From the NCBI GenBank assembly GCA_030704615.1, contig CM060733.1, forward strand, positions 19,902,001-19,966,000: a stretch of 64,000 nucleotides of DNA. The letters run 5' to 3'. A program made the translations under genes and the position numbers. The notes beneath the pieces were generated by a model that made no database searches, was not told the origin of the DNA, and was given only the letters and a program-made list of their open reading frames with translations. Positions 14,570 through 36,330 of this stretch are shown piece by piece (positions within the stretch are counted from its first letter, which is position 1; each line of letters opens with the position of its first letter). The stretch comes from Takakia lepidozioides (taxonomy: Eukaryota > Plantae > Bryophyta).

Positions 14570-17500
14570 CACGATTGCATTGACTCTTCCCAGCATTTCC
14601 TTGTAATGGTTTTGTAACATGGCTGTGTTGTTATCATACATCTTTTGTATGACATAAGGTCCTTCCATGGTGATTTAAGCTTAGAAGCTTGAATCTTTCC
14701 TTTCTTCTGCAACCATAGAAACAAATCCCCCGTCTTAAAAGTCTTTTTAATTTGCCTTTCATCAAACTGTTCCTTTCGCTTCATCTGAATTCTGGTCATA
14801 TTATCAGCTGCATCACTCGACGTATTCTTCCACATGGTATATATTCGGCGTTTCCTGACCTTGATGGAGTTCGCAATTCCATTCTTTTCCCCCACTCTGT
14901 TCCCATGGTATGGTAACAGGAATTCCACTGGAAGTAGGCTTCCATACCATAAACTAATTGGAATGGTGTATACTTAGTGGTGACTTTATATGAAGTCCTG
15001 TATGACCACAAGCTGTCAGCAGCTTTGTATCCCAATCCGTTCTGTTTGCATTGACTATCTTAGCAAGATAGTACATAGTATTTGTTGGTAGCCTCTGCCT
15101 GTCCATTACCCTGTGGGTAATATGTTGTACTCTTTCTATGCACAATCAAAACTTTTAGTCAATAACTCAATGGTCTCATTCATGAAGTGACTTCCTTGTC
15201 ACTGATATAATATTCTAAGGGACATCCAAATCGTGTAAGTATGTTCTCGTACAGGAACCTTGCTGTGGACTTGGCTGTGTGTCCCTCAAAGCTTAGCTTC
15301 CACCCACTTTGTAGTATAATCAGTGGGTGGCTGTAATTATGTACCTGTTTCGTGGTATTCTTGGATGGTGGATTAATTGGTCCAACAAAGTCTAGTCCCC
15401 ATTTCTGAAATGGTTCCGTAGGCATTGTAGGATGCAAGGCCATTCTTCCAGATCTCTGCAAAGGTCCTAGCCTCTGACATTCATCACACTTCTGACAATA
15501 CTCATGTACATCTTTGAACACCGTAGGCACAAACCATACCTGCGAGTAGTATCTTCTACTGGTAGTCCTCTCTCTTCTCCAAAATGACCTCCAGCCACTC
15601 CTTTTATGAACTTCCTCCAAGACTTTATTTACTTCATGGTGGTACAAGCATCGTTTTAGTACTCCATCAGGTCCTAACTTATACATCTGCTTCCTACCAT
15701 AGTATAAGGTAAAGCTCTGATAGCAATTCTTTTCCTTTGCTCCTTACCATAACTAGGTGGGCACTGACCATGAGCAAGGTAGTATCTGATGGCCACTGCC
15801 AATCTAACCATTCATCTGCACTTCCTGCACCTCCATTACAAATAAACTCGCATCAGGTAATGATCGTCCACTCCTGTGGCGGCCTCTCCTGTTGTTAGTC
15901 GTGACAAATGATCTGCCACAAGATGCAAACGGCCAGGCTTGTAAAATAACCTCGAACTCAAACTCATGCAAGATTATTAACCACCTCGCTATCCTTCCAC
16001 TTATCAAAGGTTTGTTCACCAGATATATCAGAGCCTGGTGATCCACATAAAACATAAACTTCTTCCCAATAGGTAATGCCTGAATTTCTTCACTGCATAG
16101 ATCATTGCCAATGCTCTCTTTCGTTGTGCTATAGTTCCTCTCAGCACTGTTCATCAACCGGCTAGCATAGTACACAGGTGAATCTATATTCCCTGTACAT
16201 TCTGGGCTAAACCGCTCCCCAATTGCTTCTCCTGATGCATCGCATGAACATGAAATACTACATGCCAGTGAGGGTTAATCAGCACAGGTGTAGTGTTACT
16301 GACAGTGTAAGTTCCTCAAACGCCTGTTGACATTCAGCTGTCCATGCAAACACTGCATCTTTCTTCAGAAGCTTGCTCAATGGTGCTGCTATTTGTGCAT
16401 ACCTTTTGACAAATCTTCTGTAATAACTGGTTTGCCCAAGAATCTCCTTAAACTCTTAACATTCACTGGTGGTGGAGAGACTTTAATGGACTCTGTCTTC
16501 CTGGGATCCACAAGAAGTCCCTTCTTACACACTTGTGTCCCAGAAGCACCCCTGAGTTCACACAGAAAGTACACTTCTCTGGATTCAAGCCCAGACCTCT
16601 CATCCTGCATCTGGCCAGGCATAACTCCAATTTATGCAAGTGCTCATTCTTAGAGCTGTACACACTGAAATCATCCAAAAACACCTGCATGAAATCATCA
16701 GATACTCTTGAAAAGATTCACTTATCACTCTCTGAAAGGTCGCTGGTGCATTACAAAGTCCAAAGGGCATGACTTTGTATGCATAAGCCCCCCAGTCTGT
16801 GATGAAAGCTGTTTTCCCTTGGTCTTCTTCTGCCACTTGCACTTGATTATAACCACTGAAGCCATCCATGAATGAGTACATCTCATGGCCTGCCACAGTG
16901 TCTAATACTGCTTCTGTGAATGGCAAAGGGAAAGGATCTTTCTTCGTACAAGCATTCAGCTTCTTATAGTTCACACATACTCTTAGTTTGCCATTCTTCT
17001 TGGGAACTATAACAATGGGTGACAACCAAGTTGTATACTCTATTGGGTATATAAACTTAGCCTCAGCAACTTCTTTATCTCTTCTCCAACCTTCTGTGCG
17101 TAGTTGGGATTCATTCTATACCTCGCTGCTTGATTGGCACTGACCCTGGTTCCAGTTCAATTTTATGCTGACAGACTTCAGGTGGTATCCCTTTTAGATC
17201 TCATAGCTCCAAGCAAATACATCTCTGTATTTGATGAACAAGCTTTTAGCTTCTTCGAAGAATTCCGGCTCCAAATCAGCTCCTACTTTCACCATCCTTG
17301 GTTCTCCGGAGTTCCCACATTTACTTCTCTCACCTGCTCATCAGCTGTGATTGTCCAACCAGTCACCACTTCATCCTGTAAGCTCACAGTGGCTGGTTCT
17401 TCTAGGATTTCTATTTCTCCTTCTCTTTCTTCATAGAAATGTGATGGGTAAATGCTGGTTTCTTCTTCGTTGGTGTTGCTGTCACTACACCACAGCAGAT

Positions 17501-19850
17501 ACCTCTCAAACAACTTAGGCTTTCCAGCCGCATCTCTGCAACTTGCTCCCACTCTGGGGTTGCAGCAAATAGGGTAGCTTCCTGCTCCTCATCCAGTCCT
17601 CCCCTCCAGTCATACTCTCTGACTCCTCGAGGTCTTTCTGTAGCAGGTAATCTACTAGATTCTTTGTGGTAATTTGTATCTCGTGCATCCCATTATGCAC
17701 AGTTAGTAACTGAGAATTCCAGTCATGGAATACCCTGGCCTGTTTCAGCCACGGACGTCCCAATCATAAGGAATAAGCCTCCATGACTTCATCCATTTTA
17801 ATACAGTTACTGTGATCAGAAAGATCATTTTCTGTATCTGTATCTTAACTCCTCTTATTAATCCCAATGGCTGTACACGTCTTTGATCTGCCATTGTTAC
17901 TGTAAATGGGGCTGGTTTCATGTTACTTAGACCAAGCTTCTTCCTTAATTGGTCTGTCATGATATTTACTCCAGAACCACCATCTATCAGTACATCAGTT
18001 AGTTCTGTGCTTCCAATTCTCAATTGGATTACTGGCATAGAATCATCAAAGTCCATGACTGGTTCTCGCCCTTCGGCTTCACAGATAACTGGTCACCTTG
18101 CTGTTCAGGTCTGTGTTTCCTGTTTCTTGGGCAATTCGATTGATTGCCTGATACAGCCTGTGCCTACAATAGGTGCCACAGCTAATAGCTGTCCCATGGT
18201 AATTCTGCTTTGGTCTGACATATTACTTCAGCCAAAGTCTCTTCATTACTTTGCATGTCTGCATCTTCTTTTCTCCTTTCTCCTCCACTCTCCTCTTTTC
18301 TCCATCCGAATCAGAGGAATCTGCCACAGGAATATCAGTACTCTTTTGCATTTCCCTTATAGTATCTGCCACTTCCTTGTGCAGTTCCTTCTCATCCTTC
18401 CAAGTCTCTTCATCTTCAGGCATATCATTGCCACTTCCAGTTCTCCTTCTTCCTCTTCTACTGGAGGTATTAGTTTAGCTTTACTTCTTGTTACTATCAT
18501 TGTACTTATTCTGGTACAACACATGGCCTAACCATGTGAGCTGCCACCACTGGGCCCTCATTCACAGGAGCTCTCATCTCATTCTGGTGTCTTATCCAGA
18601 ATGAACAGGCTGCCTTGCGATGTCCTGGCTGATTACAATAGTAACATAGCTCTTCACCATTGGGTCCTCGCCCTTGGTCTGGTCTTGGATTATTTCTATA
18701 ATCCTGATTCCCGGGCTGGTAATTCCCCCCGGATTACCCTGATAGTTGCCTCTGGAATTTCCTTGGTAATTCCCTCTTGAATTACCTCTTCCTTCCATGC
18801 CATGTTATAACCACCAGACCTACCATAGTGGTCCTGATCATTGCTTCTTCTGGCTGGGGTTGCACCTGATGCACCCTCACTTGCCTAGGTTCTCTGCAGC
18901 TGTCCTTCTGTTGTAGTAACAATTCTCAGTAGAATGGTTATCCATTTTACAGATAGTACAGTGTTTCTCCTTCATGTGGCATTCTGTAGTGGTATGGCCT
19001 TCATTCTGGCACTTTGCACACCATACACCTTCCTCCAATGTGTTGCAGCCTCTGTGGCATACTTCTTCAAGATTTCTTCCAATCTTTTCTCATAGTTACC
19101 TCTTCAACTTTCCTTTCTCTTACTCTTCTTTTTAGTTCTTGCTCTTCTTCTTCATCTGACTCATCTCAGAGTCCTCATCTTCCTTTTCTCTCTCCTGAGC
19201 ATTCCCAATTGCTCAATTCTGTTCGCAGTTTCAAATGCCTCCTCCACTGTATTATGGGGTAACATATCCACTTTCTTCTGCAACTCTGGTCTTAGTCCAC
19301 TCACAAACCAAGTCTTCTGTAAACCGGGTGCTGGTACTGCAGCCAGCTTTTTCATCATCAATTCCATCTTCTCCATATACTCTTCAACAGTTTCATGTTC
19401 TTCTGCTTCAGCTGTTGTAAACTTCCATACACTTCATCCTCAGTTTTACTTGTCCTGAACCTATTTCGAAATGCTGTATTCAAGCCATTCCAGGTTAGGA
19501 AATGATTATCAGGAATCTTGCATACCATTCACTTGCTTTCTTGATAAGTGAACAAGGAAACAGTCTCATCTTGGCATCATCGCCATTCTCATTGTTCACT
19601 ATACACATGTGCTCAAATTGGTAATGTGTACATCGGGATCCCCTTTTCCTGAATATATTGGAAAGGGTGGTTTTGCCCGTGTTGGTTGTAACGCCATCTG
19701 TGGCCCTACCTTCTGCCCACTGACAGGTGCTGGCACCCTTGCTGGTGCTGGTCCTTCTGGACCTGTTGTTTTTGTGGTGGATCTTCCACCAAGTGGTGGC
19801 CCTTGAGCACTCCCGCTTCTGGCCCCACGATATTCACAGTATTCCAAGCT
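14570..19850 (-). pseudogene. gag-pol of the nested element, heavily frameshifted
   Basis: Gag (YSGKGDPDVHI, FVSGLRPELQ), protease (LIDGGSGVNIM), RT (PIVIVPKKNGKLRVC..DGFSGYNQ..MPFGLCNAPATFQR..FLDD), RH (YYASRLMNSAERNYSTT, YVDHQAL) and INT (CQKCDECQR, WGLDFVGP). Confidence 0.92.
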
Positions 19851-20023
19851 TCAGTTGCACTACTTCCCCACTCCCTGTCCCACAGAGCCAGATCCAGGCA
19901 GCCCGCCTGATCCCCTGAGCCGACACCTTCGTTGGCCTGTGATCCAAGTGCTCCACTTGATCCAGGTCCAACGGGTTGGGATGTCCTGGTTGTAGTCTCA
20001 ACCTCAGCTGTGGGTCTACTTCT

Positions 20024-21080
20024 TCATATTCTTCCTCTTCCAATTTCTTCTCTGTTTTCATCATTCAAGTTCTGCCCTTGGGTTTCTTCTTCACTCATGT
20101 AACTCAACTGTAATGGTGTTGGAGAGTCTGAACTCTCCGTTGGCTCTGCCACATCCTCATCTCCTTCTTCATCTTCTGCTTCAGAAACTGGAGTTCCTGC
20201 TTTTGGTGTTCCATGCCAACTTTTATCAAAGATTTCTGTTAAATCTTTTATCCAAGGATGTACCTCAGATCTTTCACCTCTGATTGATCTTCTTCCTGTA
20301 CCAATTCCCTTAATCTTTCTTGCAAAGAAACAGAAGGAGTGGCATCCAACTCTAGTTCTTCCGGTATAGGTGATGCACTTTTTGATCTTGATGGTGTGAG
20401 AGGTCCAGATGATTCCCCTATGTCTATTCCTCTCTCCCAAAGATATGGATAATTAGCTTTCAGATAGCTTTCCTTTTTATGAATATCTTGTCGTCTAGCT
20501 TCTCTTTCATCACTCATGTCCATGTCTTTCATTTCTTTTAATGTGGCAATAACCAAAACTCTCTTCTGTAATATCTCTCGTATATGCCTGGATTTCTTTC
20601 AAGCTTCAATGCACCTTGGCTATACTTGAAGTCTCCGTTACCATATAACCATATGGCAAACAAGTCTGAAAAGCTGTTCTTGGTGTGAGTTTGATCCACA
20701 AAATCCCTTGGAATCCAATCTTTACCAGTACAAGCTCTTCATGCATATGAGTATAAACATTCACCTTTCTTCTTCCCAGCCTTCAAACTCTACTCGTTTA
20801 ATGGATAGCAATGCTATCACATAAACCAATGTTGGTAACCAACGTGCTCTTCCTCTACAGGCTACCTGATAAATCTTTATCACTCCTTTCTCCAGACCCC
20901 ATTCTGGATCAGCATCATGCACTCGTTTAAGAATATTTTCTTTACATCCGTCTGGCAATTCCAAGAACCTTTGAAAGAACTGTTTGGACAATCTTTTCTT
21001 CCGTTTCACAGGGAATTTGATTCACTTCAAATTCTTTAATGGTCCAACCACCATGATCCCACCAGATGCCTGTCACATCT
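20024..21080 (-). pseudogene. Possible 5' extra ORF or gag N-terminal extension of the nested element, fragmented
   Basis: Consecutive same-strand coding-like fragments (20761-21009, 20248-20556, 20024-20440) between the PBS and gag. Confidence 0.45.
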
Positions 21081-21099
21081 GGTTGTTCATGTCCCAGTT

Positions 21100-21116
21100 C
21101 CCCAGTATGGTCGCCA
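21100..21116 (-). promoter_or_regulatory. Primer-binding site, tRNA-Arg-like (TGGCGACCATACTGGGG)
   Basis: Begins with TGG 2 nt inside the 5' LTR end. The tRNA identity is inferred. Confidence 0.7.
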
Positions 21117-21118
21117 AA

Positions 21119-22215
21119 TGTCGCGCGGCTTTTACTCACCCATCCCTTCGCTATCCGAGGCGGAAACTCCAAGATAGAAGAGTTGGAAATCTCTAAGTAC
21201 TCAGCCCGCGCAGAACAATCAGTCATGACCTACAGCTAGTGTATCATGGGGGTGTTTCCTATTTGTTTCCCTTTTCGCATTCATCTTAGCTACCTTACCA
21301 TTGATAATTACGTATTAGTTCCTTCACTCCTCAATCAATCCACAGCTTCACTCAGATCTCTCTAACAGTGTGATTGTATCGTATAATATCAGATTAGATT
21401 TTATCAGGTTATCAGGCCGAAGCCATTGTATCTTTTCTCCTACAATATCCTACGGCTTTGCATCTAACAAGCATCTACTAATCCTCCTTCATCGTGCTCT
21501 GATCTCTGCTTCCGCTGACTCCCAAGTCCTCCCCGAATAATGATCTCATCATTAATCCCCGTTCTTCCTTTATCCTCCTATCCGCGGTTCTAACCGTTTC
21601 CCTCTCTAACCGTCGTATGTGAACTAACATGTTCCATTCTCTGGTGTTGTTCCCCACAGTCGTTCCTGTCCTACTCTTCGTTCCCTATTATCGTGAAGCT
21701 GTGTCAAGCGGTGATGGCTGTGTTTGGCTGTGTCGGGCTGTGACTGGCTGTGTGGCTATGCCGGCTGTGACTGGCTGTGTGGGCTGGTCTGCTGTGACGA
21801 CTGTGACGGGGGTTGGGCTGTGTGGGCTGTGACGACTGTGACGGGCTGTGTTGGCTGTGACGGCTGTGTGGGCTGTGTGGCTGTGACGGCTGTGTCGGGC
21901 CTGTGTGGCTGTGTGTGGCTGTGTCGCGCTGTGTGGGCTGTGAGGACTGGGACGGCTGTTGTGTTGTTTGGTTGTGTGACGGCTGTGTGGGCTGTGTGGG
22001 CTGTACGGGTGTGTGGGATGTGTGGGCTGTGTGGGCTGTTGTAGGCTGTGTGGGCTGTGACGGGTGTTGTGTGACGGCTGTGTGGGTGTTGTGTAACCCC
22101 CTTCTACATGCTTTTCGCTGTCACCTACGGTTCCTGTTTGTCTCAGTCTGTGCAAAAATTAAGGGTACCCTACAGATCCGTAGGAAGTGTCTAAGTCCCC
22201 TACAGTCCTCTAACA
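21119..22215 (-). repeat. 5' LTR of the nested element
   Basis: TG...CA ends; aligns with 10369-11485 with many 1-bp indels. Confidence 0.93.
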
Positions 22216-22427: not shown

Positions 22428-22718
22428 CTATCCAATGCACCAATCCCCATCTGGAACCATCTCAAGAGGTGGAGTCAAGCACCCCATATGCCAACCTCTA
22501 GAGCATCGATCACACACCAGCATGGTGGCTGCCCCTTTAGCAGACCCACACAACATGCACCTCAAACCTGCAGATACCACTGCCAGGTTTGGGTCAATCC
22601 TGCCATCGACATTCGGAAGGTGACATGGCGCACAATTACGCACATGGTCCTTCCAAGTTATGCCATCCCGACCCTCCAAGACCAAGACGCCTGAGGGCAA
22701 GACCTCTCGAACCCTCAA
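22428..22718 (-). CDS. Integrase C-terminus with a PHD finger (frameshifted continuation of pol)
   Basis: CMLCGSAKGAATMLVCDRCSRGWHMGCLTPPLEMVPDGDWC matches the C4HC3 PHD pattern, with the last Cys missing. Confidence 0.88.
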   Translation of the reverse strand: MRVREVLPSGVLVLEGRDGITWKDHVRNCAPCHLPNVDGRIDPNLAVVSAGLRCMLCGSAKGAATMLVCDRCSRGWHMGCLTPPLEMVPDGDWCIG

Positions 22719-25390
22719 ATAACACGTCCTGCAGTCACATCCAGGGTCGTAGGAGCAGTCTGCTGCAGATAGACATAGTCACCAGGGTTGAATCTCCGAA
22801 CCCCAGGACGATAGCCCCCACCACGTATGGTGGCATACCTCAACGTATCACGGTGTTGTGCAATGGCAAGGTTCTCGAAAGCCATGGGCATGACTCTCTT
22901 GAACAACTCTGCACGCTGCTCACATGCACGTGCCCACACGTCCGGATCGTCAAGGTTAAGAACTGTAGCAGCTTCTCTGCGAATGGATGTCGGCAAATCC
23001 GGCTCTCGGCCAAAGAGAAGAAAGTATGGTGAGAAGGAGGCAAGTGATGCTTGCTTGCTGAACCTGTAGCCCATGGCTAACCAGGGTAACTGAAGGTCCC
23101 AATCTCCTAGGTGTCCCTTCTGCAAGCCATACTTGCGCAAACCCCTCTTTACTGTCTGAACAACTCTCTCTGCCAAGCCATCGGCTTCAGGATGATCCCG
23201 AGAAGTGGTGCGGTGGTCTATCAAGGCCTTGTCACACAAAGCCTGAAACTCCCCCAAGAACTCTCTCCCTTGGTCCGTGAGTACCTCAGCTGGAGCACCG
23301 AATCGGCTAAGCACACAATCCAGGAATGCATACGCAGCTCCCTCACTAGCCTTATTAGGCAATGGAACCAATTCAATCCACTTGGAGAAGTGCTCCACCA
23401 TCACAAACACGTACTTGTTGTGGCGCATGGTCAGTGGCAACGGCCCTGCGAAGTCAAGACTCCACCTGTAGCCCAATCCCATGATCGGAAGAGGGTGCAA
23501 TTGTGGAGTAGGGGCGTTGAATGAAGCACGCACCCTGTCACACACCATGCACCTAGCCACAAATTGTTGCACCTCTGTGTGCATACCACGCCACCAATAC
23601 TGCCCCTGCAGTAGACTATGAGTGCGTCGCACCCCAAAATGCCCCAACTCCTCATAGGCATGCCGCACTAACCGTGCCCGCTGTGTTGGGTGAGGCACAA
23701 TCCTCACTCGACCATCCTCCCACACTCGGAGCAGGTGTGTTCCCTCCCACCTGAACCTCTTGGCTCGTTGTAGGATCCGATCCCTCTCCTTGGCAGTCAT
23801 AGTGGCTGCCGTGTCTCCACTGCGGAGGTAGTCCAACACAACTGAATCCTCATGTATATCTTTGGCGCCACCCTGCTCATTGCTGGCCTCAGGGTCCTCA
23901 GACACTTGATCTACAGTCATCCCTGTTGTAGGTCCAACCTGGCCTTCCGCTGCCAAGATACACAGAAATGCAGATGCATGCCATCCGGGCACCATCTCCT
24001 CGTCTGTCTCACCATGCCACCGAGCTCCAGTGTCATCCTGCTGGCTCGTGCATGGATTGCGACTCAACCCATCTGCATTTCGATTGACCAAACCCGGTCG
24101 ATGCACCACCTGAAAGTCATACTCTTGAAGGATGAGTGCCCACCGTGCAAGCTTCCCCGTAAGCTTGTCTGACTCCATCAACCACTTGAGTGGTTGGTGA
24201 TCCGTGACAAGGGTGAAGAGATTGCCGTATAGATAGCACCTGAAGTGTGCCACGGCCCACATTGCAGCTAAGCATTCTCCCTCATATGAGCTATACTTAG
24301 ACTCTGCAGCATTGTTCGAGCGGCTAGCATAAGCCACTACGAACTCTCTTCCCTCATCATCCACCTGTGTGAGCACCGCTCCAAGCCCCAGCATGCTCCA
24401 ATCTGTATGCAGCTGAAAAGGACGCCCCCTGATAGGTCGTCTCAAAATGGGCGCCGAGGTCAACCTCGCCTTGAGCTCTTGAAAAGCTTGTTCTTGCTCA
24501 TCTTCCCACTGCCACTCCTGGTCCACCTTGGTCAGCTTGGTTAGAGCCTTTGCAATGGCACTAAATCCCTTAACAAACCGTCTGTAATAGTTTGCTAACC
24601 CCATGAAAGCTCGAACTCGGCTCACATCCGTGGGGCGTGGAACCTGTGCAATGGACTCTACCTTAGTCTGCTGTACCCCCAATCCTCCAGGATATATCAT
24701 GTGACCCAGATACTCAATCTGGTTGTGGAAAAACTTGCACTTGCCCGGATGTAACTTCAATCCTTGCGTCCTCAAGCGCTCAAATACCCCCTGAAGGTGT
24801 CTCTCATGCTCCTCCACCGTAGCACTAAAGATGATGATGTCATCTATGTAGCACCGAGCAAACTCCACCCCTGCTAGAATCCTGTCCATGACTCTTTGAA
24901 ACTCAGCGGGAGCGTTTTTAAGCCCAAATGGTAAGAACCGCCACTGGTATAGGCAATCCTTCCCGTGCTCATTGATCCCCCAGAATGCCGTCTTTTGCCT
25001 ATCCGCCTCCTTGATCGGCAACTGGTGATATCCGGATCGTAAATCCAACGTGCTAAAGACCTTGGAATGCCCAATGGCATCAAAGATCTCCTCTGGTGTT
25101 GGCATGGCATACCTATCGGACTTGGTTTGACGATTTACAGGCCGGTAATCACCGCACATACGTCTCTCCGTCCAATTGCCATAGACATCCTTCTTAGCTG
25201 GCATCACCGTGGCTGAAGCATACTCTCCACCAGAGAGCTCCACCAAACCTGCCTCCCAGAGATCTTGAGTCCTCATCTGAATCAAAGACCTCTCCATGTC
25301 ACTGTATCTATAGGGTCTCCGAAAGATTGGCGTGTCAGTGGCCAACTCAATACGGATCTCTTGACCCTTCAGTGCTCCCAAGTCCTTCAA
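22715..25390 (-). CDS. Gypsy pol: RT - RNase H - integrase
   Basis: RMCGDYRPVN, LDLRSGYHQ, LPFGLKNAP, YIDD; LHTDWS, YEGECLA, VTDHQPL; GHFG..CMVC, WSLDFAGP, LTDQGREF, DGLAER. Confidence 0.96.
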   Translation of the reverse strand: MKDLGALKGQEIRIELATDTPIFRRPYRYSDMERSLIQMRTQDLWEAGLVELSGGEYASATVMPAKKDVYGNWTERRMCGDYRPVNRQTKSDRYAMPTPEEIFDAIGHSKVFSTLDLRSGYHQLPIKEADRQKTAFWGINEHGKDCLYQWRFLPFGLKNAPAEFQRVMDRILAGVEFARCYIDDIIIFSATVEEHERHLQGVFERLRTQGLKLHPGKCKFFHNQIEYLGHMIYPGGLGVQQTKVESIAQVPRPTDVSRVRAFMGLANYYRRFVKGFSAIAKALTKLTKVDQEWQWEDEQEQAFQELKARLTSAPILRRPIRGRPFQLHTDWSMLGLGAVLTQVDDEGREFVVAYASRSNNAAESKYSSYEGECLAAMWAVAHFRCYLYGNLFTLVTDHQPLKWLMESDKLTGKLARWALILQEYDFQVVHRPGLVNRNADGLSRNPCTSQQDDTGARWHGETDEEMVPGWHASAFLCILAAEGQVGPTTGMTVDQVSEDPEASNEQGGAKDIHEDSVVLDYLRSGDTAATMTAKERDRILQRAKRFRWEGTHLLRVWEDGRVRIVPHPTQRARLVRHAYEELGHFGVRRTHSLLQGQYWWRGMHTEVQQFVARCMVCDRVRASFNAPTPQLHPLPIMGLGYRWSLDFAGPLPLTMRHNKYVFVMVEHFSKWIELVPLPNKASEGAAYAFLDCVLSRFGAPAEVLTDQGREFLGEFQALCDKALIDHRTTSRDHPEADGLAERVVQTVKRGLRKYGLQKGHLGDWDLQLPWLAMGYRFSKQASLASFSPYFLLFGREPDLPTSIRREAATVLNLDDPDVWARACEQRAELFKRVMPMAFENLAIAQHRDTLRYATIRGGGYRPGVRRFNPGDYVYLQQTAPTTLDVTAGRVI

Positions 25391-25725
25391 ACTGAAGGCA
25401 AAGCAATTCCTATAAGCCCTCAGGAACCGCCGTATACGTCGTCTCTCTCCTCCGATGACAATGGGTCCAATGTCAGGCTCCCAATTGTCCTCCGTAACTG
25501 CAACCTTAAGTCCAGTGGGCTTAGAGGTAGAGGACGCGTCCCGTGGTTGCTATGCTGCAACCTCTTGAGCAGTACCCCCTTCCTGCTCAGTCAATGACAA
25601 GGCCTCATCCTACCCCATCATCTCATCATGGGAACCTCCTCATCCCAAGAAGAATCCCCAACCTCATCCATCACAGCTGCCTTCGCTGCCAACTCCCTCT
25701 GAACCTCGAGCACCTCCCACGTGTG

Positions 25726-28700
25726 TCATGGATGTCTACACCTCGTGGTCCTCACCGGCTCGCCCCCACTCGCTGCCTGTACCGTCTCGGTAGGCAGAGA
25801 GACCGTCAAGGGAAGTGCACTCCGCACTCTACGTTGCTCAGCCATAGCCAAGCTGACAATCCAGGTCAAGCAATTGAGATCCATTGCTTGCCCCAACACT
25901 TGACGACGTGATGCCTCAGAAAGAGAAGGCACCGCCGTGGTCCCAGTGGAAAACCCCATAGCCCGCTCTCGCTCGTCGGCATTAGGCTCCACTAACTGCT
26001 GCAACTGAGCATCCCACAAGAGGCCAGGTCCACCATCCCAAAAAGCATGGGATCCTGGGAAGCTGAGCAGTGTAGGTAATGCTGCTCGTGGTTGACCCAC
26101 CCTGTTGACCACTGCCAAAGGCGAACGGTCATCGTGTCTCACACGTTGAGACTGCCTTCCTGTGTCCAAAATGCCATCCACGGTGAGGTGTGCTGGCCGC
26201 TGCACCCCATCAAATGCACGCTTGAGCAGTGCGGGTGGCATCAAGTTAGTCCACCATAGTCGTGGACGATGAGCCCGTGACCCCACTGCAGCTGCATCCA
26301 GCAATACTGCTGACCCAAGCCACGACCGGACTTGATGCACACTGGCCATCACTCTGGCCCGAGAATCACCCATCAGTGGCACATTCTCCAAGATGTATGC
26401 CGGGGATACAGCCTGATGAAGCTGCAAGTGGCGCAAAATCCGCACCATCTCCCAAAACAGACCCGTCCTCGAGTCTCGCAATCCATTGCCATGCCCGGCT
26501 GATGAATGCCCTTGGCAGGGCCAACCTGCCACTACCAGATCAATGGAGCCAACCCGCTCCAAATCCTGCGCCCCCAGCAACGCAATGTCTGCTGGCAAGG
26601 CCTGCTGATATCCACGAACTGCAGACACCGGCAACAACTCAGGGTGCTGCTGCACCATCTGAGCAACATGGCGCAGTGAGACGCGTCGTGCAGTCTCATC
26701 CCTCTCCACATACAGGTAACGTCGAACTTGTACACCTGCCTGCAGCACTGCAGCCAATCCAGTGCTGATTCCGCCAAATAAGTCCAGAAGGCATATGCCT
26801 TCATCCGGCCGCTGCCACACAAGAGGTGTGGTGTCCAATGGCGACAACTGAGGTGGCCCTGGTGCAATCACCGCACTCTCCTCCTCTCCTGACGGTACAA
26901 AAGCTTCTACCCAAGCTTGTTGCACCCGTCCATCAGCAGCTTGCTGCAAATCCTTGCTCGTACCCCACAACGGAGTGTGAGCAACCATGGCAGGCAACTC
27001 CGCCGTACCATGCATGTCATCCTGCTCTGCTGGAGGTGGCACATCCTCTGCATGGGCATTGCCTTCCAGCAACTCTCCAGGCCAACTAACTGCAGCTGTG
27101 AAGGCGGCTAGTGTTGGCATCTTGCCCCGCTGGGCAGCTGCAATACCCCCAATGAATGTCACAGGGAGCTGTGCACGGCGACCATCCCCTGACTGCCATC
27201 CAGGCCTGTAGGATGCTGACTCCTCCCAGAAATCCAGGGTAAAGCCCATGGGGTATAACACTGCCCCACCAACGAGGACATCGTAAGAGACCGCGTCTGT
27301 CACAATGGCCTTGGCTCGCATCACTGAGCCATCTACAGGATGATCCGGCTGCAGTTTAATAGCCAACTGATGCCGTGTCATGCCGCGAGCCTGCTCTGAT
27401 CCTCCCAAAGATGTCTGTATCTGGAAATGACAAGGCTCCATATCCGCCTCCATGAGGCCCAAACCTGCAATAGCAGCTCTGCCCAACATCAGTGGCTGAG
27501 CTCCTGAGTCCAACAAGACCCGCAGTGGCCGGTACTTCTTACCTGCCGATCCACTCAAAGTGAAAATGCCTCTCTGGTTGTCTAACAAGACAACTCCAGG
27601 TGTCACCATGGCGCGCTCAAAGGCTGGCCTAGCTGGCAGCTCCGTCAATCTGGCAGCTGCAGCTTGCCAGGGCGCTGCCGTGGCAGTCTTGACCCTCAAA
27701 TCCGAGGATCCCTCTGCCACTACACCTTCCACTAACTCCGCAGAAGATGAAGTGACCTCCCCACTCTCACAGAGTGTTGCTGCTAGTCTGAACACTGCAG
27801 CTGGTCTCACCCCCGGCGTCGCAATCATTGTTGCCGAGAACAGTGGGGCCTGACACACAGAGGTGGCTGCCCCCAATAACACACCGGCCGCACTAGCCTT
27901 GGCAGCAAGAGTCAATGCTGCACGTGTAGCTCTCCCCAATGGCATAGTAACCTCCGCCTCGGTAACAGTCGGGCGAGAACTAGGTGCCATGGATGGCGTC
28001 GACACAGTCTCCGCCAATGTGAATGACTGAGGAAGCCTTGCCTGACGGCTTGCCTCCCCACGCCGTGGATCCAATTCCACCTCTGCACCTCGTGGCTCAG
28101 GAACTCGTGCTGCTCCTCGAGTCACGGCTGCAGCAGACTCCACCTGCTCTAGTGGTAGTGCTGCTCCGCACATAAATCCCATGCCTCCCATATCTCCTCC
28201 CTCAGGAGCAGGAGGTGGACCATCCCGCCTGGGAGCCGGTACCGCCTGAGCTATAGCCATGGCAGCGAGCCTCTGCTCTAGCTGCTGAAGCCGGTTGGCC
28301 ATGCCTTGATCAACGCCCTGACCTCCGCGTCCTTGGCCATGTTGAGCTTGCCCTTGGCCTGCACCTCGTGCCCGACCACCTCGTCCTCTTTGGGCTGGTC
28401 CACCTCGCCCCCGGCCACCATTGTTCCCTTGGAACTGGCCTGGGCGCAACTCAGGATGCAAGTCATAACACTGGGCATCTCCATGCCCATACTTGCCACA
28501 ATGCCCACACTGCAACTGTGCAGGCTGTGCTTGTGCCGGCCTTCTGCCACTCTCTGGGCAATCTCTCTTGACATGGGGTCCTCCACATGTCCAACATATC
28601 ACCCCTGGTTGCTGTTGGCCTACAAAAGATGCCACGGGCCTCTGCACCTGAGATCCCCTGTAAGCTCCATGGAACTTGGGCTGGGCAACCTTGCCCCCCT

Positions 28701-29751
28701 GACCACGCTGTTGGGCAGTCCCTTGTGCTTGTGGGCTGACAGCTGTGCCCCGTACAGGCATGTCCTTGCCAAATCCAATTGTAACAACTCGCTCCTCCAC
28801 CATGTTGAGCTCAATCCGCTCAGCCAGCAAAAACACATCTGCTAATGTGGGTTGGGCTGCTTGTAACAGGGTTGCATCTCGCACCCTTCTCTTGAGCTCC
28901 TTGTCCAGAATTCCATACCAAAACTGGATTGCCTGAGCTTCAGTAACCCCTTGGGTCACACTTATCAAGCGCCTCATACGAGTGTACGCCTCTCGCAGGC
29001 TCTCACTGGGTTTGCGCTGGAAGTCTTGCAAACTTCGCAGCTTCTCTGTCCGTACACCTTGGTAGTTCCTCCGCAACTCCTGGAAGAACTCCACCACCGG
29101 GTTGAATCTAGGCACATGTGTTGTAGTTGTGGCAGGAGGAGTAGTAGCACCTTTTGAACTGGTACCACCTGCAGAAGTACCAGCACTACCTGCTCCACTA
29201 CTAGTGCTGGCAGTGGGAGCTATTGGTACTGATGCAGCTACTGGTCGCGTCGTGCCTCGAGTAATGGAGACGTAGTCAGGTGACCAATACATCCTCCACT
29301 CCTCAATCTCTGCTTCATGTCCTTGCCTGAACTCGTGGTAATCGTCCATAGGCGGGCCTTCCAAATGCTGGAACAGTCCCTTCCACGCCATGAATGGGGT
29401 GAATAGCTGTGGATTGCGCATCTGCTGCAAATCACACCAGCTGTCGAACTCCTGGATAAAGTCATCCAACTCGATTGTGCCCACAGCTCCAGAGTACCTA
29501 CGAGGCCCCTTGGTAGCTCCATACATCTCCTCCATGTCGTCCCACAACAATGGCGAATGAAAGTGCACACCTGTTGATGAAGCCTCCGAGTCTGTGTCTG
29601 ACTCTACAGTAATTGAGGGTGGCGGTGAAGGTGGTCTGAACCGAATACCTCGTCTTGTGAACCCACTCTCACTGTTACTGCCTGTAGCCGTACTCCCCTC
29701 AAAACCCTTGGGTAACTCCGTAATGACACTCACAATGTGCACCTCCTCCAC
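25726..29751 (-). CDS. Gag - two Zn knuckles - aspartic protease - DNA (cytosine-5) methyltransferase polyprotein (1341 aa)
   Basis: Gag (FQRKPSESLREAYTRM), CWTCGGPHVKRDC, CGHCGKYGHGDAQC and protease LLDSGAQ. C5-MTase motifs: LDLFGGISTG (I), YVERD (II), AGWPCQG (IV), ILENV (VI), AHRPRLWWTNL (VIII), ERERAMGF (IX), RRQVLGQAM (X). Confidence 0.95.
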   Translation of the reverse strand: MEEVHIVSVITELPKGFEGSTATGSNSESGFTRRGIRFRPPSPPPSITVESDTDSEASSTGVHFHSPLLWDDMEEMYGATKGPRRYSGAVGTIELDDFIQEFDSWCDLQQMRNPQLFTPFMAWKGLFQHLEGPPMDDYHEFRQGHEAEIEEWRMYWSPDYVSITRGTTRPVAASVPIAPTASTSSGAGSAGTSAGGTSSKGATTPPATTTTHVPRFNPVVEFFQELRRNYQGVRTEKLRSLQDFQRKPSESLREAYTRMRRLISVTQGVTEAQAIQFWYGILDKELKRRVRDATLLQAAQPTLADVFLLAERIELNMVEERVVTIGFGKDMPVRGTAVSPQAQGTAQQRGQGGKVAQPKFHGAYRGSQVQRPVASFVGQQQPGVICWTCGGPHVKRDCPESGRRPAQAQPAQLQCGHCGKYGHGDAQCYDLHPELRPGQFQGNNGGRGRGGPAQRGRGGRARGAGQGQAQHGQGRGGQGVDQGMANRLQQLEQRLAAMAIAQAVPAPRRDGPPPAPEGGDMGGMGFMCGAALPLEQVESAAAVTRGAARVPEPRGAEVELDPRRGEASRQARLPQSFTLAETVSTPSMAPSSRPTVTEAEVTMPLGRATRAALTLAAKASAAGVLLGAATSVCQAPLFSATMIATPGVRPAAVFRLAATLCESGEVTSSSAELVEGVVAEGSSDLRVKTATAAPWQAAAARLTELPARPAFERAMVTPGVVLLDNQRGIFTLSGSAGKKYRPLRVLLDSGAQPLMLGRAAIAGLGLMEADMEPCHFQIQTSLGGSEQARGMTRHQLAIKLQPDHPVDGSVMRAKAIVTDAVSYDVLVGGAVLYPMGFTLDFWEESASYRPGWQSGDGRRAQLPVTFIGGIAAAQRGKMPTLAAFTAAVSWPGELLEGNAHAEDVPPPAEQDDMHGTAELPAMVAHTPLWGTSKDLQQAADGRVQQAWVEAFVPSGEEESAVIAPGPPQLSPLDTTPLVWQRPDEGICLLDLFGGISTGLAAVLQAGVQVRRYLYVERDETARRVSLRHVAQMVQQHPELLPVSAVRGYQQALPADIALLGAQDLERVGSIDLVVAGWPCQGHSSAGHGNGLRDSRTGLFWEMVRILRHLQLHQAVSPAYILENVPLMGDSRARVMASVHQVRSWLGSAVLLDAAAVGSRAHRPRLWWTNLMPPALLKRAFDGVQRPAHLTVDGILDTGRQSQRVRHDDRSPLAVVNRVGQPRAALPTLLSFPGSHAFWDGGPGLLWDAQLQQLVEPNADERERAMGFSTGTTAVPSLSEASRRQVLGQAMDLNCLTWIVSLAMAEQRRVRSALPLTVSLPTETVQAASGGEPVRTTRCRHP

Positions 29752-30270
29752 GTGACACTATAAGGCTCTAGTACTAATCTAATAGTGACACGGGTGGGCA
29801 CCTGTTGCAGTCTAAGGGTCATATCCCAATGGCTCAGGGCACCTGCACCTGCATCCACCGCAAGAACTCCTATGGTTGGCTGGTCATCAACCCAGCCTCA
29901 CCATAGAAGAAACACTGGTGGTCTTGCTGGTCATCACTCCAGCCTCACCACCGACAGCATACTCTAGGATTGACCGGTGATCAAATCCGGCCTAATCCCT
30001 ATGAAAGCAAGCGCCCACACAAAACCAACATGGCGCACAGTCAAGCATGCAGGTGTTGGGGAGGATCCAAACACAAGAAATCAAAACATCAACACCCCCA
30101 CACCAAAATCCAGCAGCAACGCTGATCCTGCAGAATATCCCAGCCCAAAACCCCGGGCTGACTGGCCTCCACCAAGAGAGGCTTTGGCAACTACAAGTAC
30201 AAGGTAATGAAAATAGTACAAAGATGGAGGGGAAGAATAGAAGCCCGCCCAAGCAAGATCTAATCCTGAT

Positions 30271-31020
30271 CTATGCTATCAACTTCCAGACTTCTCTCAA
30301 AGTGCCTCGCTCTGCTTGATGGTAAGGTGTAGGAGGTATATCTATGTCCAGAAACCTGCCACTAACCTTGTCCCAAGCTACAGTAGCTCGCTCTAACCAA
30401 CCCTCCTCCTCTTTCTGCCAGGTAGAGACAAAGCAACACTCTGCTATCTCCCGCTCACTGAGCACTAAAGAAAACAAAGGTAGGGTCTGATAGTCTCTCA
30501 ACTCGAAAGCTTTGAGACGGTTGCGGGTGTCTTCATTGCGAATGACTGCATCGCCTTCAAACAGAACAAACTTGTCCTCGCTAATGAACCCCCGCTCATG
30601 GTTGCCTTGTGCAGAGCGTGTCCGACTGCAACACTGTCTAATTGCACAAACTTGTGCAGCTCCTGCTCCTCTACTCCAGTACACCACGGCCTTGTGGCTG
30701 AACACCTTGGTCCCCGGGGCTGTCTTTGGCTGTGTTCCAAGCCTAGCTTTCACCCACTTTGGTATTTCACCTACAGCTGCAGAACTGCTGGCTCCAACAG
30801 AGTTCTGACTGTCCAAGGCGATATTGAGGCCCTCAATGCCAACTACAGCAGTCTGTTGTCTACTGCTAATGCCTGACTCCCAGTATGCAATCAACTCGTC
30901 CAACTGTTCTCCACTCAAATCAGTCTGAGTTCCTTGGGAAACATAGATCGTGTCCCCTTGTGTGCACAGACTAAGAGAAGAGACCTGCCCTTCAATTACG
31001 TCCTCATTTCCCCCAGCCAT
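30271..31020 (-). CDS. Intact 249-aa ORF of unknown function upstream of gag
   Basis: ATG-initiated, on the same strand as gag-pol, with a globular-looking C-terminal half. Confidence 0.6.
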   Translation of the reverse strand: MAGGNEDVIEGQVSSLSLCTQGDTIYVSQGTQTDLSGEQLDELIAYWESGISSRQQTAVVGIEGLNIALDSQNSVGASSSAAVGEIPKWVKARLGTQPKTAPGTKVFSHKAVVYWSRGAGAAQVCAIRQCCSRTRSAQGNHERGFISEDKFVLFEGDAVIRNEDTRNRLKAFELRDYQTLPLFSLVLSEREIAECCFVSTWQKEEEGWLERATVAWDKVSGRFLDIDIPPTPYHQAERGTLREVWKLIA

Positions 31021-31505
31021 GCATGGAGTACATCCACCAATTTGTCTCTCATATAGACCAGCACAGGTTCTAGAGACAGGATTGTGGATCTTTCATGGCA
31101 CACTCACACTCTAAAAATTCCATAGATTTTTAGCAGAGTCCCAAAAACAAAAACCAGGTCTAGATAGGTAGATTTCCCTTTTCTGTAGGTCCCTGCGCAA
31201 GTTTTGGGTCCAACGGCCTTGGTAGGCCAAAGTTATGGCCAAACAGGCTCTATCTAATTTAAATTAGATCAAAGAACGATTTTTTATTTTTTTATTTTTT
31301 TAAATACTTGTCTTGGTTCCTGTTCCCTGGTTACCTACGGGTTCCCGAGGCCGTTCCCCTCGCACTGTGAGCACACTACTGCCCCATTTCCGAGCGCACT
31401 CCACAGCAGCAGTCTTCCGTGAGAGAGAGAGAGAGAGAGCTATGGCGGGACTTACAACAACAGCACAGGGCATCACCGCGTCCTTGGCATCAGCGGCATG
31501 GGGGC

Positions 31506-31676: not shown

Positions 31677-33062
31677 CACATGTTCATATCATGCCTGCGA
31701 TCACCACCCAAGTCGACCCCAACCAGTATTGACAGTGAGTGCAACTCGGTTGTTCTCCACACGCTCCATCATGCCTGCGATCAGCTTTCACACAAGGTGG
31801 TCCATTTCCGATGCCTGGCCTCCGCCCTCAATGTAGATGATATGACTCTTAACTCCCCAAATGTATGGGCCTGAGCAACTCTCCAGCTATCCATTTCACT
31901 CCAGGCACTTCGTATTCATCCTAGGGACGTTGTGGTAGTGCAGATATCAGCGTTCATAGCTTGCCTGGCAGGTTTGAATCTTTCTTACAGTAGTCACATT
32001 GTAACAGAGCCATCAAGCAACAAATTGCAGTGGCAGTCGTTTACTGGATCCTCGCAACAGCCTTCCTTGCAGGATTCTTTACCTAGTTGGTTCACATTAG
32101 CAAATGAATCAGCATCTTCATCTCGTCAAGTGGTTGGAATGCCTGAGCGGTCACTGCCCATCAATCAAACTCAGACGGAGAACGATTTGCTTGGTCTGCA
32201 AGGACACTCCTTGTCAGTAGGTGTTTGCCCCAAACAGCCAGAGCTGCAGCAGGTCTGCACACCCAGCCCGCAGGTGGAGTAAGACTGCAAGATATTTGGG
32301 TTCACGTTGACAAACAAGCGGACATGGCCTGTCTCCAGTCCCCAGATCACTCAAGGTGAGGATTCTGAAAGCTCAAGGCATTGCCCAGTGGCAGAAATAG
32401 CTAAGCCTTCTACCTATGGCAGCTTGGGGACAGAAGCATCACTTGTCATGGTTGATCAAGAAATAACCCCACAATCCACGGGCCCCAACACCAATCTTGG
32501 AGGGCACGGACGACACTCGCAAGGCCTGACCACTCAACAACCTCTGCTGCCGCACACGACCTCGCCTGCAGCGGGAGTCACCAAGGCCCTGGCAGCTACG
32601 GTCGCTACGGTCGGTTTTCCCTGCATGTGATAGTATCGCGCAGCTGGTGGGTGCACTAAAGGCTGGCAATGAAAGAGCACAGAAAGCAGCACTTGAGGCT
32701 TTGTTCCTACTACGTCAAGCCTGATCCTCCAGTCCTGCCGAGGTGGGAAAAGCACAAGCCATGGCAGCGGCAGAAGCCATCCCTATGCTACAACTGTTGA
32801 TGAGGACATGCCCCCCACGCTTTCAGAACAAGGCAGACAGCCTGCTGCAGTGCCTGCCAGGAGGACGAGAACATTGTTGGCTTTGAACTGCTGCAGCGAC
32901 ACTTCGAGTGGTTCCCGCCTTCCTGTTATGCTCCACTAGGCACACATAGCCAGTCTACCTGCAGGCTCTCGTAACCAAGCTATATTATAATAGTGCTTAA
33001 AACAGGAACGTCACATCTAGCTTAGCCCTAGAAAACTAGATACAGTTTCAATCTCTCTCGAG

Positions 33063-33419
33063 TGATAAGAAAGCTTGGAAAGACACACACTCTCAACACA
33101 AGAAATGTGAAATCCCTCAACATCACTCGTTAAAACAGTAGTCGAGCCAGGGGCACCCCAAGCTATGGGGACTCCACCCCACAACAACCTACACTCCCAT
33201 CATGAGTACACTCAGATCTAAACGCATGCAGGAGCCCGGTCGCGCAGGCTCAACTCGAGAGAGATGAGCTGCGCGACTGCCGCTCTCGTGAAGATAAGAC
33301 GGACCAGGTGTCAAACTAAACTTGACACCTGATTTAACACTTGACCTAAATCCAAGTGTTAAATACAAATAACTAGTTTTATTCTAGCTGTTTTCACACC
33401 GTGCTTATTTAACTTGACA
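33063..33419 (-). repeat. 357-bp repeat B, 5' terminal copy
   Basis: Matches 9872-10228; lacks the A segment. Confidence 0.95.
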
Positions 33420-36330
33420 AAGAATACACGCATGCATTTCCGGATGAGGTGGTACTTTGTGACAAACTCGGGGAGGACTATGTTGGTGTTCTCCTTTCCA
33501 GGGTGCTAGTGGGAGGATGTGGATCTCTCATGTTCATTGTCAAGTGGCCTTTGATTAGAACAAAATTCTTGCAAAATGGAAGGTTGCTTTCGGAAGATTT
33601 ACAAAATTTCTACAGCTCCGAGATGGCTAGTGAGCCGGAGGATGGTGAGTGTGGTATAAAGAAGGCTCCTTACAGGCATTTTCGTAGATCCAAAAGAGGT
33701 GTTGCTTTGGATGAGTCTTGGAAATCAAAAAGGTTACTCTCGAAAAAGTCTGTGAGAGAGGTCAGTATCAAACCATGTTGTCAGCTTCGATGTTGTCAAT
33801 TCTTTGACTGGAAGAAGACACTTGCTCTTCGCACCACATTTTGGGGATCTACCTTTGACAATAGACGAGAACTGGGATTTGAAATTCCACGGAGACTACA
33901 CAGACTCGAGGGGTCAACTCGTCGAACATACATTACTATTGAGGGAGAGGATATTTGCGAGAAGGCGTAGTGGACAATTCATGGAATTGGCAGGTCAACT
34001 TATATGGAGTACAAAAGACTCTCCAAAGAATGAGTTATCTCTTCTGTGCATGGAAATTGTGGAATGAAGCGGCCCCGCCCAGAGACTGTTCAGGCTGAGG
34101 GGAACATATTGTCTATCATTAACGGGAACAGTGATTTCATGCCACATAAGACGAGATGTATTGGTGAGGGACACCAAGATACACTCCGTGTACTACCTCC
34201 AGAGATTAATTGGAAACGAGTTCGAGATGAGTCCAACGAGGCGAGTATTTTTTTCTCATCTACTTCTTCTTTTGGACCTCTCTATTAAGACAATGTGAAT
34301 AAGATGTGATTTGGTTGAGCAAATATATTTTTTACATCGATCGATCAATAGTATTTATTTATCTACTACCTGTATTAGGCTGATGAGATTACTACAGCAG
34401 ACCTCGATATTAGTGTCAACGTGCTAATATATTCTTGGGCGCACGTGACAGACCAATCAGGTTCTGGGCTTAGGGCCTATTTCTACTTCAGCAGTGAGTC
34501 GAATTAGAAAGAATATGTTCTCCAACGACGAAGTCAGAAAAAATGGAGGGACATTTGCAAAATGTACAGAGTGTGAGATGCTAAATGACCTCATTAAGAA
34601 GTCTGTGAAAAGAAGTGTAGACCAAATGTGTCATAAGAAAGCTCTTGACAAACATTTGAAGCATCAAAAGTCTCACCGGAGACTCTACCATAGCTGGAGG
34701 AATGAATCAGTTATGATGCCAACATAATTCTTATGCATCATTCATGATAAGATGGATCATCAAAATACTGCTCTTTCATGTTTGCAAACAACGAACAATA
34801 TAATTTCAGGCTTGGGGCAGCTTCCAGTGTCTATGGTGGGTATCGTTACTCACGGTCACGGAGATGGTGCGTACGCTCAATATTGGATGGATTTTTGGCT
34901 AGCAGATCCCAACTTCGTTATAGGATCTTTGACTAGAATTTTGCGACAATTGGAGAAACCAACATGTCGTGAATCAATGGCCCTTTTTGACAACCCCATA
35001 CAAACTGATTTCTTTGAAGTCATAATGAGAGGAAAATCCAGGTGTTTGGATGTTTTGAAGTCTTGTTTTAAAAATGAAAAAAAGTGAACGTTTCCATTAC
35101 CACGAAGATTGTATCTACAAATGGACAATTGTGTCAAAGACAACAAGAATAGGTGGATGTTGGCGTTCTTATCACTGCTTACTGCAAGAGGGGTGTTTGA
35201 AAAAATTCAACTTGGTTTCCTTATGGTTGGCCATACGCATGAGGACATTGATGCTTATTTTAGTTACCTTTCGAAGAAATTGAAAGAGAACAACACCTAT
35301 GTTCTTTCCGATCTCATGAAAAATTTCATGATATCTCAAGACCTACAGTTCATTCCGCAAATAATTCAAGAAGTTCCAGACTTCAAGGATTTTGTCTATG
35401 GCTTTATTTTGGAGGGGAATGAGGCTTTGGTTGGAGCTACGGAAATGCATTTTTTTTGGTTTTTTGTTGATTCGGATGGCTGGCCTCTAATGCAATACAA
35501 AAAATCTGCAACAGATTCCAATTGTCTTCCAAAAAATGGCAATGTCAAAATGTGGAAAGCAAAAGACGATGGTTCTCCAATGCTTCTAGTTGGACAGCCA
35601 AAACCGCTCCGTAAGAGACCTATTTGGGGAGATGGTGAGGAAGCATCGGAGAAACAATCTTGCATCAAGTCCGGTATTAAAAAGTACATGGATTTTTGGA
35701 AAAAAATGACGCTATTGAATGATCAATATGGAAATATCATGAAACAATATGATCAATATTGGGCGGATATTCTTGAAGAACTTGACCTTCCGTTGGAGGA
35801 GCCAAATGACGAACTTATCGAAGGATTTTGGCCAGTAACAAAATGGGTCGAGCACCATAGGAGAGACGGTGCTCATAGACAGTCTCAAGACGCATTGTCC
35901 GATAATGAAGATATTGTGGGCCGAGATGTGACCGTCCGAAAATACCGTTGAATCCATTCAAGGATATTGAGAAGGGATTCTTTGTCCTTGTTCGTCCAAA
36001 TGATACGGAGACTTTTCCTGTTTGGATGAGAATGACAATATCGAATGTTGTACGAGATATAGAAGATCGCAATTACAAAAAGCTTCTTGTGGAGTGGTGG
36101 AGACCGAAGAAAGGGGGCAATCCTACAGATGCGGATAAGATTGTTGGTCCAAAAATTGGGAGTTCAACCCAATGGATTCCGCTCAATGGATTCATGTTGA
36201 CAATGTAGTGTGGACAATGTCACCGAGAAAAAATACGACAAAAGCAAGTACAAAAAAGATAACTGTTCGAAAGGCGGACAATGCTAGAGCAAATTTGGAA
36301 TCAACAAATCATCAAGATAATGAAAACTAA
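33420..36330 (+). pseudogene. Decayed Sola-like (DUF7869-type) DDD/E transposase
   Basis: CCQLRCC..FW, KCTEC, IIHDKMD, YLQMDNCVKDNKN and FLMVGHTHEDIDAYFS; several stops and frameshifts. The superfamily is recalled from motif similarity. Confidence 0.7.

Follow-up and report, generated by a model that had tools for sequence, protein, structure and literature searches.

This kind of retrotransposon, which carries its own DNMT3-type cytosine methyltransferase, was first described in a green alga. KnitGypsy-Dnmt3 of Klebsormidium nitens combines Gypsy domains, among them reverse transcriptase (RT), with a DNMT3-type domain, has a DIRS-like repeat layout (Fig. 4 legend of that paper) and is under purifying selection (de Mendoza et al., 2018, PMC5890265). 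Here, we describe a 23.6-kb Gypsy-type element in a 64,000-nucleotide stretch of the bryophyte Takakia lepidozioides (GenBank assembly GCA_030704615.1, contig CM060733.1, positions 19,902,001 to 19,966,000; hereafter the window, with positions counted from its first letter). Judging from its domain order and repeat layout, it is a land-plant variant of the KnitGypsy-Dnmt3 kind. The two differ in host, an alga and a land plant, and their DNMT domains share 44% identity; in addition, the algal DNMT lies in the Pol frame (PMC5890265), whereas here a conserved stop precedes RT in 23/23 loci. With a probability of roughly 0.6, the enzyme is packaged with Gag and would methylate the element's own new cDNA.

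Several other systems share parts of this anatomy. SymbioDIRS-Dnmt3 of Symbiodinium likewise joins a DNMT3-type domain to a retrotransposon with A-coding-B-A-B repeats, but it uses a tyrosine recombinase (PMC5890265), whereas the window element has a DDE integrase (rve), 4-bp target duplications and a protease. The host DNMT3 enzymes of non-flowering plants, such as PpDNMT3a/b, have the same unpermuted DNMT3-type catalytic domain, followed by a C-terminal DUF3444 (Yaari et al., 2019, PMC6453930) that is absent from P0001. Tf1/sushi, Tcn1 chromoviruses, Phygy and Selgy have the same Gypsy domain order, and Tf1 and Tcn1 also prime themselves (Neumann et al., 2019, PMC6317226); the window element differs from them in having a PHD finger rather than a chromodomain, split repeats and a DNMT. 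In the available portions of PMC6317226, neither PHD nor methyltransferase occurs. The available text of PMC5890265 describes no target duplication, priming mode or junction palindrome and has 0 occurrences of PHD, and Marchantia is unmentioned in the portions seen of its main text and three supplementary files. A 2025 survey repeats the occurrence of such DNMT3s in streptophytes and dinoflagellates (PMC12344493), and its supplements may include land-plant copies. Full-text literature searches, over a collection with few subscription papers and without Repbase, turned up no description of such an element from land plants, of where its stop lies or of how it would integrate; the same holds for the available portions of PMC6453930, PMC6317226, PMC11982613, PMC8616336, PMC10952607 and PMC11244446. 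What is added to the known kind is the ratio of nonsynonymous to synonymous substitution rates (dN/dS) of the DNMT, the placement of the stop, compensatory self-priming pairs, a junction palindrome and a second layout in chlorophytes.

The methyltransferase domain

All features of the element lie on the minus strand, except for its target-site duplications and one repeat junction, to which no strand is assigned. The first open reading frame, ORF1 (25726..29757), spans 1343 codons without a stop and contains a weak Gag match, two zinc knuckles (near 28596 and 28509), an aspartic protease with the motif DSGA (27510) and the DNMT domain (25828..26799, 324 aa), upstream of the RT frame that opens at 25549. 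A preliminary description of this DNA had placed a DNMT3-like enzyme with intact motifs between the protease and RT of a Gypsy element, in frame with Gag and protease in a 1341-aa frame. The position, the motifs and the shared frame all hold; the count of 1341 aa (29751-25729), however, starts at the first GTG, and the first methionine that matches Marchantia relatives lies at about 29535.

By direct reading, the motifs follow one another in canonical order: I (LDLFGGISTG), II (YVERD), IV (AGWPCQ, with the cysteine codon at 26517-26515), VI (ENV, 26388), VIII (AHRPRLWWTNL), IX (EPNADERERAMGF) and X (RRQVLGQAMD). The likeness of motif VIII to AHRARYFWGNL of DNMT3, pointed out earlier, is recovered in the alignment to DNMT3A. 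The domain matches PF00145 at 50.7 bits (cut-off 22), and as a single sequence against solved structures it ranks DNMT3A (46.7 bits) above DNMT3B (34.8), DRM (28.8) and M.HhaI (23.3). A profile of 31 sequences searched against the PDB keeps that order, with 94 bits for DNMT3A, 84 for DNMT3B, 57 for DRM and 36 for M.HhaI. An AlphaFold2 model of the domain reaches a mean pLDDT (per-residue confidence) of 93.9, and its top fold match is again DNMT3A (Z 29.2, root-mean-square deviation 2.6, 271 residues), the first bacterial enzyme following at Z 25.7. In sequence and in predicted fold, the domain is thus nearest to DNMT3A/B/C and not to DRM, DNMT2 or bacterial enzymes. A DRM identity was rejected because DRM has a rearranged motif order while the motifs here run from I to X, and a host DNMT3 gene was rejected because the domain is fused to Gag-protease and has no DUF3444 match. 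Across 44 loci, many of them decayed, the catalytic residues E138 and R180 are kept in 40 and 39, respectively; the presence of PC in 44/44 is a circular count, since the scan pattern demanded it. By motifs, sequence and modelled fold, the domain is a complete and conserved DNMT3-type cytosine methyltransferase.

A conserved stop and selection on the domain

In all 23 loci in which the DNMT precedes RT, a stop lies at the same place, 55-62 codons ahead of the RT core. These loci include many near-copies and represent about five independent families, about four besides that of the window. The stop is TAG in 15 and TAA in 8, and the next codon is CAA or CAG (glutamine) in 22/23; in 16/23 the DNMT is in frame with RT, and the other loci are frameshifted. 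In the window, TAG is followed by CAA CCA (25544..25552), and L017 and L019 have TAG CAG TTA, contexts that fit the CARYYA readthrough motif; the stop is accordingly annotated as predicted to be leaky. In the intact locus L017, a single stop parts two open stretches of 1369 and 1047 codons, and Marchantia ORF1 proteins of 1278-1281 aa likewise end at the conserved position. Since the DNMT lies upstream of a conserved in-frame stop, it is likely to be made at the level of Gag, and we infer that Gag-PR-DNMT (PR, protease) would be an abundant product.

Selection on the domain was gauged from pairwise dN/dS values (Nei-Gojobori). Between the window and L002, L003, L005 and L023, dN/dS of the DNMT is 0.07-0.10, at dS of 2.1-3.7 and hence near saturation (the comparison with L017 is saturated). 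The unsaturated pair L017/L019 (dS 0.25) gives 0.136 for DNMT, 0.108 for protease and 0.17 for RT; L003/L005 gives 0.20 for DNMT, and two pairs of the second layout described below give 0.12-0.17. Furthermore, DNMT and RT distances covary across 81 elements (Spearman 0.485, reached in 0/999 permutations). Selection on replicating elements, as read from these comparisons, keeps the DNMT domain. In three pairs of decayed sister copies, DNMT dN/dS rises to 0.52-0.58, as would be expected if the domain were a captured fragment of a host gene in neutral drift. We give practically no credence to that explanation: RT and integrase of the same decayed copies yield the same values, dN/dS between families is 0.07-0.20, retention of the domain extends from Klebsormidium to liverworts and mosses, and both dN/dS and the covariation with RT refute it. 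Neutral evolution and absence from sister copies, which had been named in advance as refutations, were not borne out: the domain is under purifying selection and occurs in sister elements.

Relatives and two domain layouts

A protein search with the DNMT region returned 61 proteins, including 15 from Marchantia polymorpha (61-77%), one from Sphagnum fallax, one from Closterium and several from chlorophytes, namely Monoraphidium, Hariotina and a protein labelled Chrzof1, which we take to be Chromochloris. The Pol search adds Calypogeia (80%), Riccia, Klebsormidium and a Coleochaete transcript (74%), and 255 representatives at 50% clustering reach an E-value of 1e-30. One Pol protein of this plant lineage, P0474, is deposited as uncultured cyanobacterium and is likely a eukaryotic contaminant of a metagenome bin. 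Among viral contigs, the search for Pol gave nothing, and 11 weak methyltransferase matches on short stretches were not used. By these matches, liverworts and mosses (Marchantia, Calypogeia, Sphagnum) commonly carry the family, and the window copy is one of many. In the K. nitens protein P0301, protease, DNMT, RT, RNase H and integrase follow one another as they do in the window element. The suggestion that this algal lineage persists in a land plant agrees with both the relatives found and their domain order.

When 325 proteins were mapped, the DNMT preceded RT in 29 and adjoined RNase H or integrase in 107, and the latter arrangement defines a second, chlorophyte layout in which the DNMT lies between RNase H and integrase. 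Quick trees were built without a host DNMT3 outgroup and, for DNMT, with 29 of the 94 rows left out by thinning of the second layout. The DNMT tree joins the window to Marchantia, Calypogeia and Sphagnum (99), the RT tree to Marchantia and Calypogeia (91). A single branch separates the two layouts (98 in the DNMT tree, 86 in the RT tree), and the K. nitens element stands on the window's side of the DNMT split (98); the deep forks are open in both trees, which have no sound root. Among second-layout loci L033 and L035-L040, several have long extra frames after the PHD finger with no convincing Pfam match, and tandem junctions between long terminal repeats (LTRs) occur in L038 and L039.

The second layout bears on an alternative role for the enzyme, in which it would enter the nucleus together with the PHD-bearing integrase, act there on the target site or on copies already integrated, and seed silencing that limits harm to the host. 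This option was raised by de Mendoza et al. (PMC5890265), and DNMT3 of moss methylates CG and CHH sites de novo (PMC6453930). The integrase does bear a PHD finger, and in the 107 of 325 proteins just mentioned the DNMT shares one frame with Pol. In the window clade, however, the conserved stop parts the DNMT from the integrase, which fits a particle component better than a subunit of the intasome, and we consider a nuclear role unlikely.

Element anatomy and integration

Self-comparison and the junctions define an element with split direct repeats in the arrangement A-coding-B-A-B, flanked by a 4-bp target duplication. Along the minus strand the order is A1, leader, ORF1, ORF2, a nested LTR element, a polypurine tract (PPT), B1, GC, A2, one base and B2. 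The right copy of the duplication, AAGA (33420..33423), equals the left copy (9782..9785), the match extending over 4 bp and failing at 5 bp. Repeat A1 (33063..33419, 357 bp, TG...CA) forms the outer 5' end and is immediately followed by the primer-binding site (33051..33062), whose start is not the TGG of tRNA-primed sites. The leader is 3.5 kb long here (29758-33050), as compared with about 1.1 kb in 6/6 relatives measured, and includes a 273-codon open frame (30271..31092) for which neither a Pfam match nor a match in relative loci or proteins was found; its best atlas score, 0.88, is a lead without a credible match. Downstream of the ORF1 tail (25553..25728), ORF2 (22715..25549) encodes RT (YIDD at 24850), RNase H and an integrase with an H2C2 zinc domain and an rve core. 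The integrase C-terminus with its PHD finger (22428..22778, PF00628 34.1 bits) is in a frame that differs from ORF2 here, while in the relative locus L017 the finger is in the integrase frame. The PPT (10318..10327, conserved in L005, L009, L012, L015, L017 and L023) directly precedes B1 (10231..10315, 85 bp, TG...CA), which is followed by A2 (9872..10228) and, one base further, by B2 (9786..9870), identical to B1 and the outer 3' end.

Most Ty3/Gypsy features are present: the order protease, RT, RNase H, integrase, the DDE integrase, TG...CA ends, a target duplication within the 4-6 bp range and a PPT. The ordinary ends, with the same LTR at both, are not, as the element ends in A and B. The 357-bp repeats, previously read as a recent repeat pair, are indeed nearly identical, but they form one pair of a split-direct-repeat layout and are not ordinary LTRs. 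A DIRS, PAT or Ngaro identity was rejected, because rve is present and no tyrosine recombinase was matched in ORF1, ORF2, the leader frame or the two frames of L017. Troyka as the source of the layout was also rejected, since its termini are CG...CG with 3-bp duplications (PMC12440569), as against TG...CA and 4 bp here. The layout is complete in the window and L023, rearranged in L016 and partial in L005, and all three complete elements (window, L023, L016) have 4-bp duplications.

The 12 bases that follow A1 are complementary at 12/12 positions to 33254..33265 within A1, the predicted self-primer at the predicted 5' end of the RNA, and 0/20000 shuffles of A contain this 12-mer; the RNA fold has a z-score of -3.92. 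In L023 a different pair of 17 bases lies 3' of a TATA-like box, and L017 has a third pair of 15 bases. The pairs thus vary in sequence among the three loci, a compensatory change. Pairing is weak or absent in 3/10 moss-type copies (L002, L004, L010), and L038 has an offset 11-mer only. In its general features, the pairing resembles self-priming of the Tf1 type.

With the PPT placed before B1, BA...BA would be expected from ordinary reverse transcription, yet the integrated form is A...B-A-B. The B1-A2 junction (10225..10234) offers a possible explanation, as it forms the palindrome GACA-GC-TGTC, made of the two outer ends and 2 extra bases, and is the predicted site of integrase cleavage. Its centre is GC in the window, L005 and L023 and GT in L017. 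A palindrome after the PPT also occurs in L039 and L040, or 2/9 of the second-layout loci that extend past the PHD finger; PPT and palindrome were not found in L033-L038 or L042. The A2-B2 junction is variable, with 1, 2 or 16 bases; in the 16-base case (L016), 9 of the bases belong to the primer site. A B1-A2 palindrome equal to the joined outer ends, together with variation at the other junction, points to integration from a two-LTR circle, and a new copy likely integrates from such a circle rather than from linear ends. Here, foamy virus sets a precedent: its DDE integrase cleaves the palindromic LTR-LTR junction, restoring the usual linear ends (Delelis et al., 2005, PMC1180852), whereas the site predicted here is internal to the LTR and would yield a permuted product. 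All 9 distinct insertions with a visible 5' repeat start at A, with no B ahead.

One alternative task for the enzyme builds on this uniform start. The DNMT might pick the integration site by methylating one of the two identical CA-GC-TG palindromes and leaving the other for the integrase to open, much as a restriction-modification system would. Two such palindromes exist per two-LTR circle, yet 9/9 insertions start at the 5' one; the palindrome has symmetric CAG/CTG sites plus an adjacent CG, it occurs with the PPT in both DNMT layouts (L039, L040), and methyltransferases recur in DIRS elements with similar repeats. Closeness to the joined ends would, however, explain the choice without methylation, the centre of L017 is GT, and L009 and L012 end at B, so that site choice by methylation appears very doubtful. 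A relative that lacks the DNMT and has DNA context was not found. The wider proposal that the whole lineage, from chlorophytes to bryophytes, integrates only from two-LTR circles, with Gag-level DNMT3 methylation in the particle protecting one of the two palindromes as a restriction-modification-like switch, is speculative and distinctly unlikely.

Proposed role of the methyltransferase

The favoured reading, that the DNMT is packaged with Gag and methylates new cDNA, can be set out as a sequence of predicted steps. The RNA would start within A1 and prime its own reverse transcription. Most ribosomes would halt at the conserved stop after the DNMT, giving Gag-PR-DNMT in excess of RT and integrase; the protease would then release the DNMT inside the particle, where it would methylate the cDNA de novo, so that the new copy would arrive already marked like the transposon DNA of its host. 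Reverse transcription would yield BA...BA, with the outer ends of the linear cDNA subsequently joined. Within the 5' LTR of this circle, the integrase would attack the internal CA-GC-TG palindrome, cutting after CA on both strands and dropping 2 bases to leave A...B-A-B, and the PHD finger would read chromatin at the target. Packaging and cDNA methylation are favoured by the location of the domain within the Gag frame, the fact that it is retained at two positions, the activity of SymbioDIRS-Dnmt3, which methylates CG de novo in yeast (PMC5890265), and the proposal of de Mendoza et al.

Other points weigh against the proposal. Readthrough at the conserved stop is itself inferred from the CARYYA motif, and the raised dN/dS of decayed sister copies has been mentioned. 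The position aligned by eye to the CpG-reading arginine of DNMT3A is Phe in 27/44 loci, and the sequence context of the enzyme may thus differ from that of DNMT3A. CpG observed/expected is 0.50-0.57 in the element, 0.34 in the nested element, which lacks a DNMT, 0.88 in a neighbouring chromovirus and 0.60 in the window, so CpG depletion fails to single out the DNMT element and is uninformative. Against a strict form of the integration model, L009 (11723-11835) and L012 (6945-7057) end at B right after the PPT, with no A-B; a one-LTR circle or recombination between B1 and B2 could yield such an end. The window copy itself is disrupted past the DNMT and again ahead of the PHD finger. Finally, the KnitGypsy-Dnmt3 domain gave no methylation in yeast, a result that its authors call inconclusive (PMC5890265). 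The lack of activity of the algal homolog in yeast would also fit a domain that serves the particle by binding nucleic acid or modifying RNA rather than as a DNA methyltransferase, and the amount predicted from production at the Gag level exceeds the need of catalysis. Such a role is highly improbable in view of the retained catalytic Glu, Asn and Arg and of a fold nearer to DNMT3 than to DNMT2.

State of the copy and its surroundings

The insertion is young, as had been proposed from the repeats: A1 and A2 differ at 2/357 sites, both transitions, and B1 and B2 at 0/85. In the window copy, ORF1 stops about 60 codons before the stop position of its relatives. One frameshift lies between DNMT and RT, leaving the two out of frame with each other (early stop and frameshift both break the ORF1 tail), and another lies before the PHD finger. 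Among the sequencing-run rows listed (12 of 16) with part of the element, none is from RNA, which carries no weight on its expression. The 3' region is interrupted by an 11.8-kb nested LTR retrotransposon (10369..22215, minus strand) with 1.1-kb LTRs, a 5-bp duplication AAGAT, a TGG-type primer site and decayed pol. Its LTRs contain GGCTGTGT-type arrays, and a 355-codon frame (11783-12850) has no Pfam match. A nested element older (93%) than its host (99.4%) was considered and rejected, because the differences between its LTRs are mostly indels: in 592 columns, 17 indels, of which 14 measure 1 bp, stand against 3 substitutions. The predominance of 1-bp indels suggests assembly errors in the window, and some lesions of the copy may therefore not be real.

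Elsewhere in the window, a young chromovirus-type element (39686-45958) has 729-bp LTRs that differ by 7 transitions, a 5-bp duplication GAATC and the primer site TGGTATCAGAGC; about 240 bp past its gag-protease frame come the end of RNase H, integrase and a chromodomain, RT having apparently been deleted. Within the flank 33420-36000 lie fragments of a DUF7869 gene (35088-35951, 131 bits in Pfam) that probably stems from a DNA transposon. An intron-split cytochrome P450 gene lies at 55945-58019, with the best single-domain matches of its exon in Sphagnum (65%), Ceratodon (61%) and Diphasiastrum (61%). This one gene points to a seed-free land plant, most likely a moss, as the host. Old repeat pairs of 73-77% identity and a short palindromic 42-nt repeat family account for 52536-53687 and 62700-64000, 36599-38626, and 2113-5154.

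Implications

Cytosine methylation is the main tool of plants against transposons, and here the transposon itself brings the enzyme. As many full-length ORF1 copies exist in the genetic model Marchantia polymorpha, the question posed in 2018, what role a DNMT plays in a retrotransposon, becomes testable in a land plant. In bryophytes, retrotransposon DNMT copies annotated as hypothetical proteins can mislead counts of DNMTs and work with mutants. In addition, the anatomy of the element suggests a DDE integrase with circles as its normal substrate, and such elements would escape LTR finders that look for two equal LTRs.

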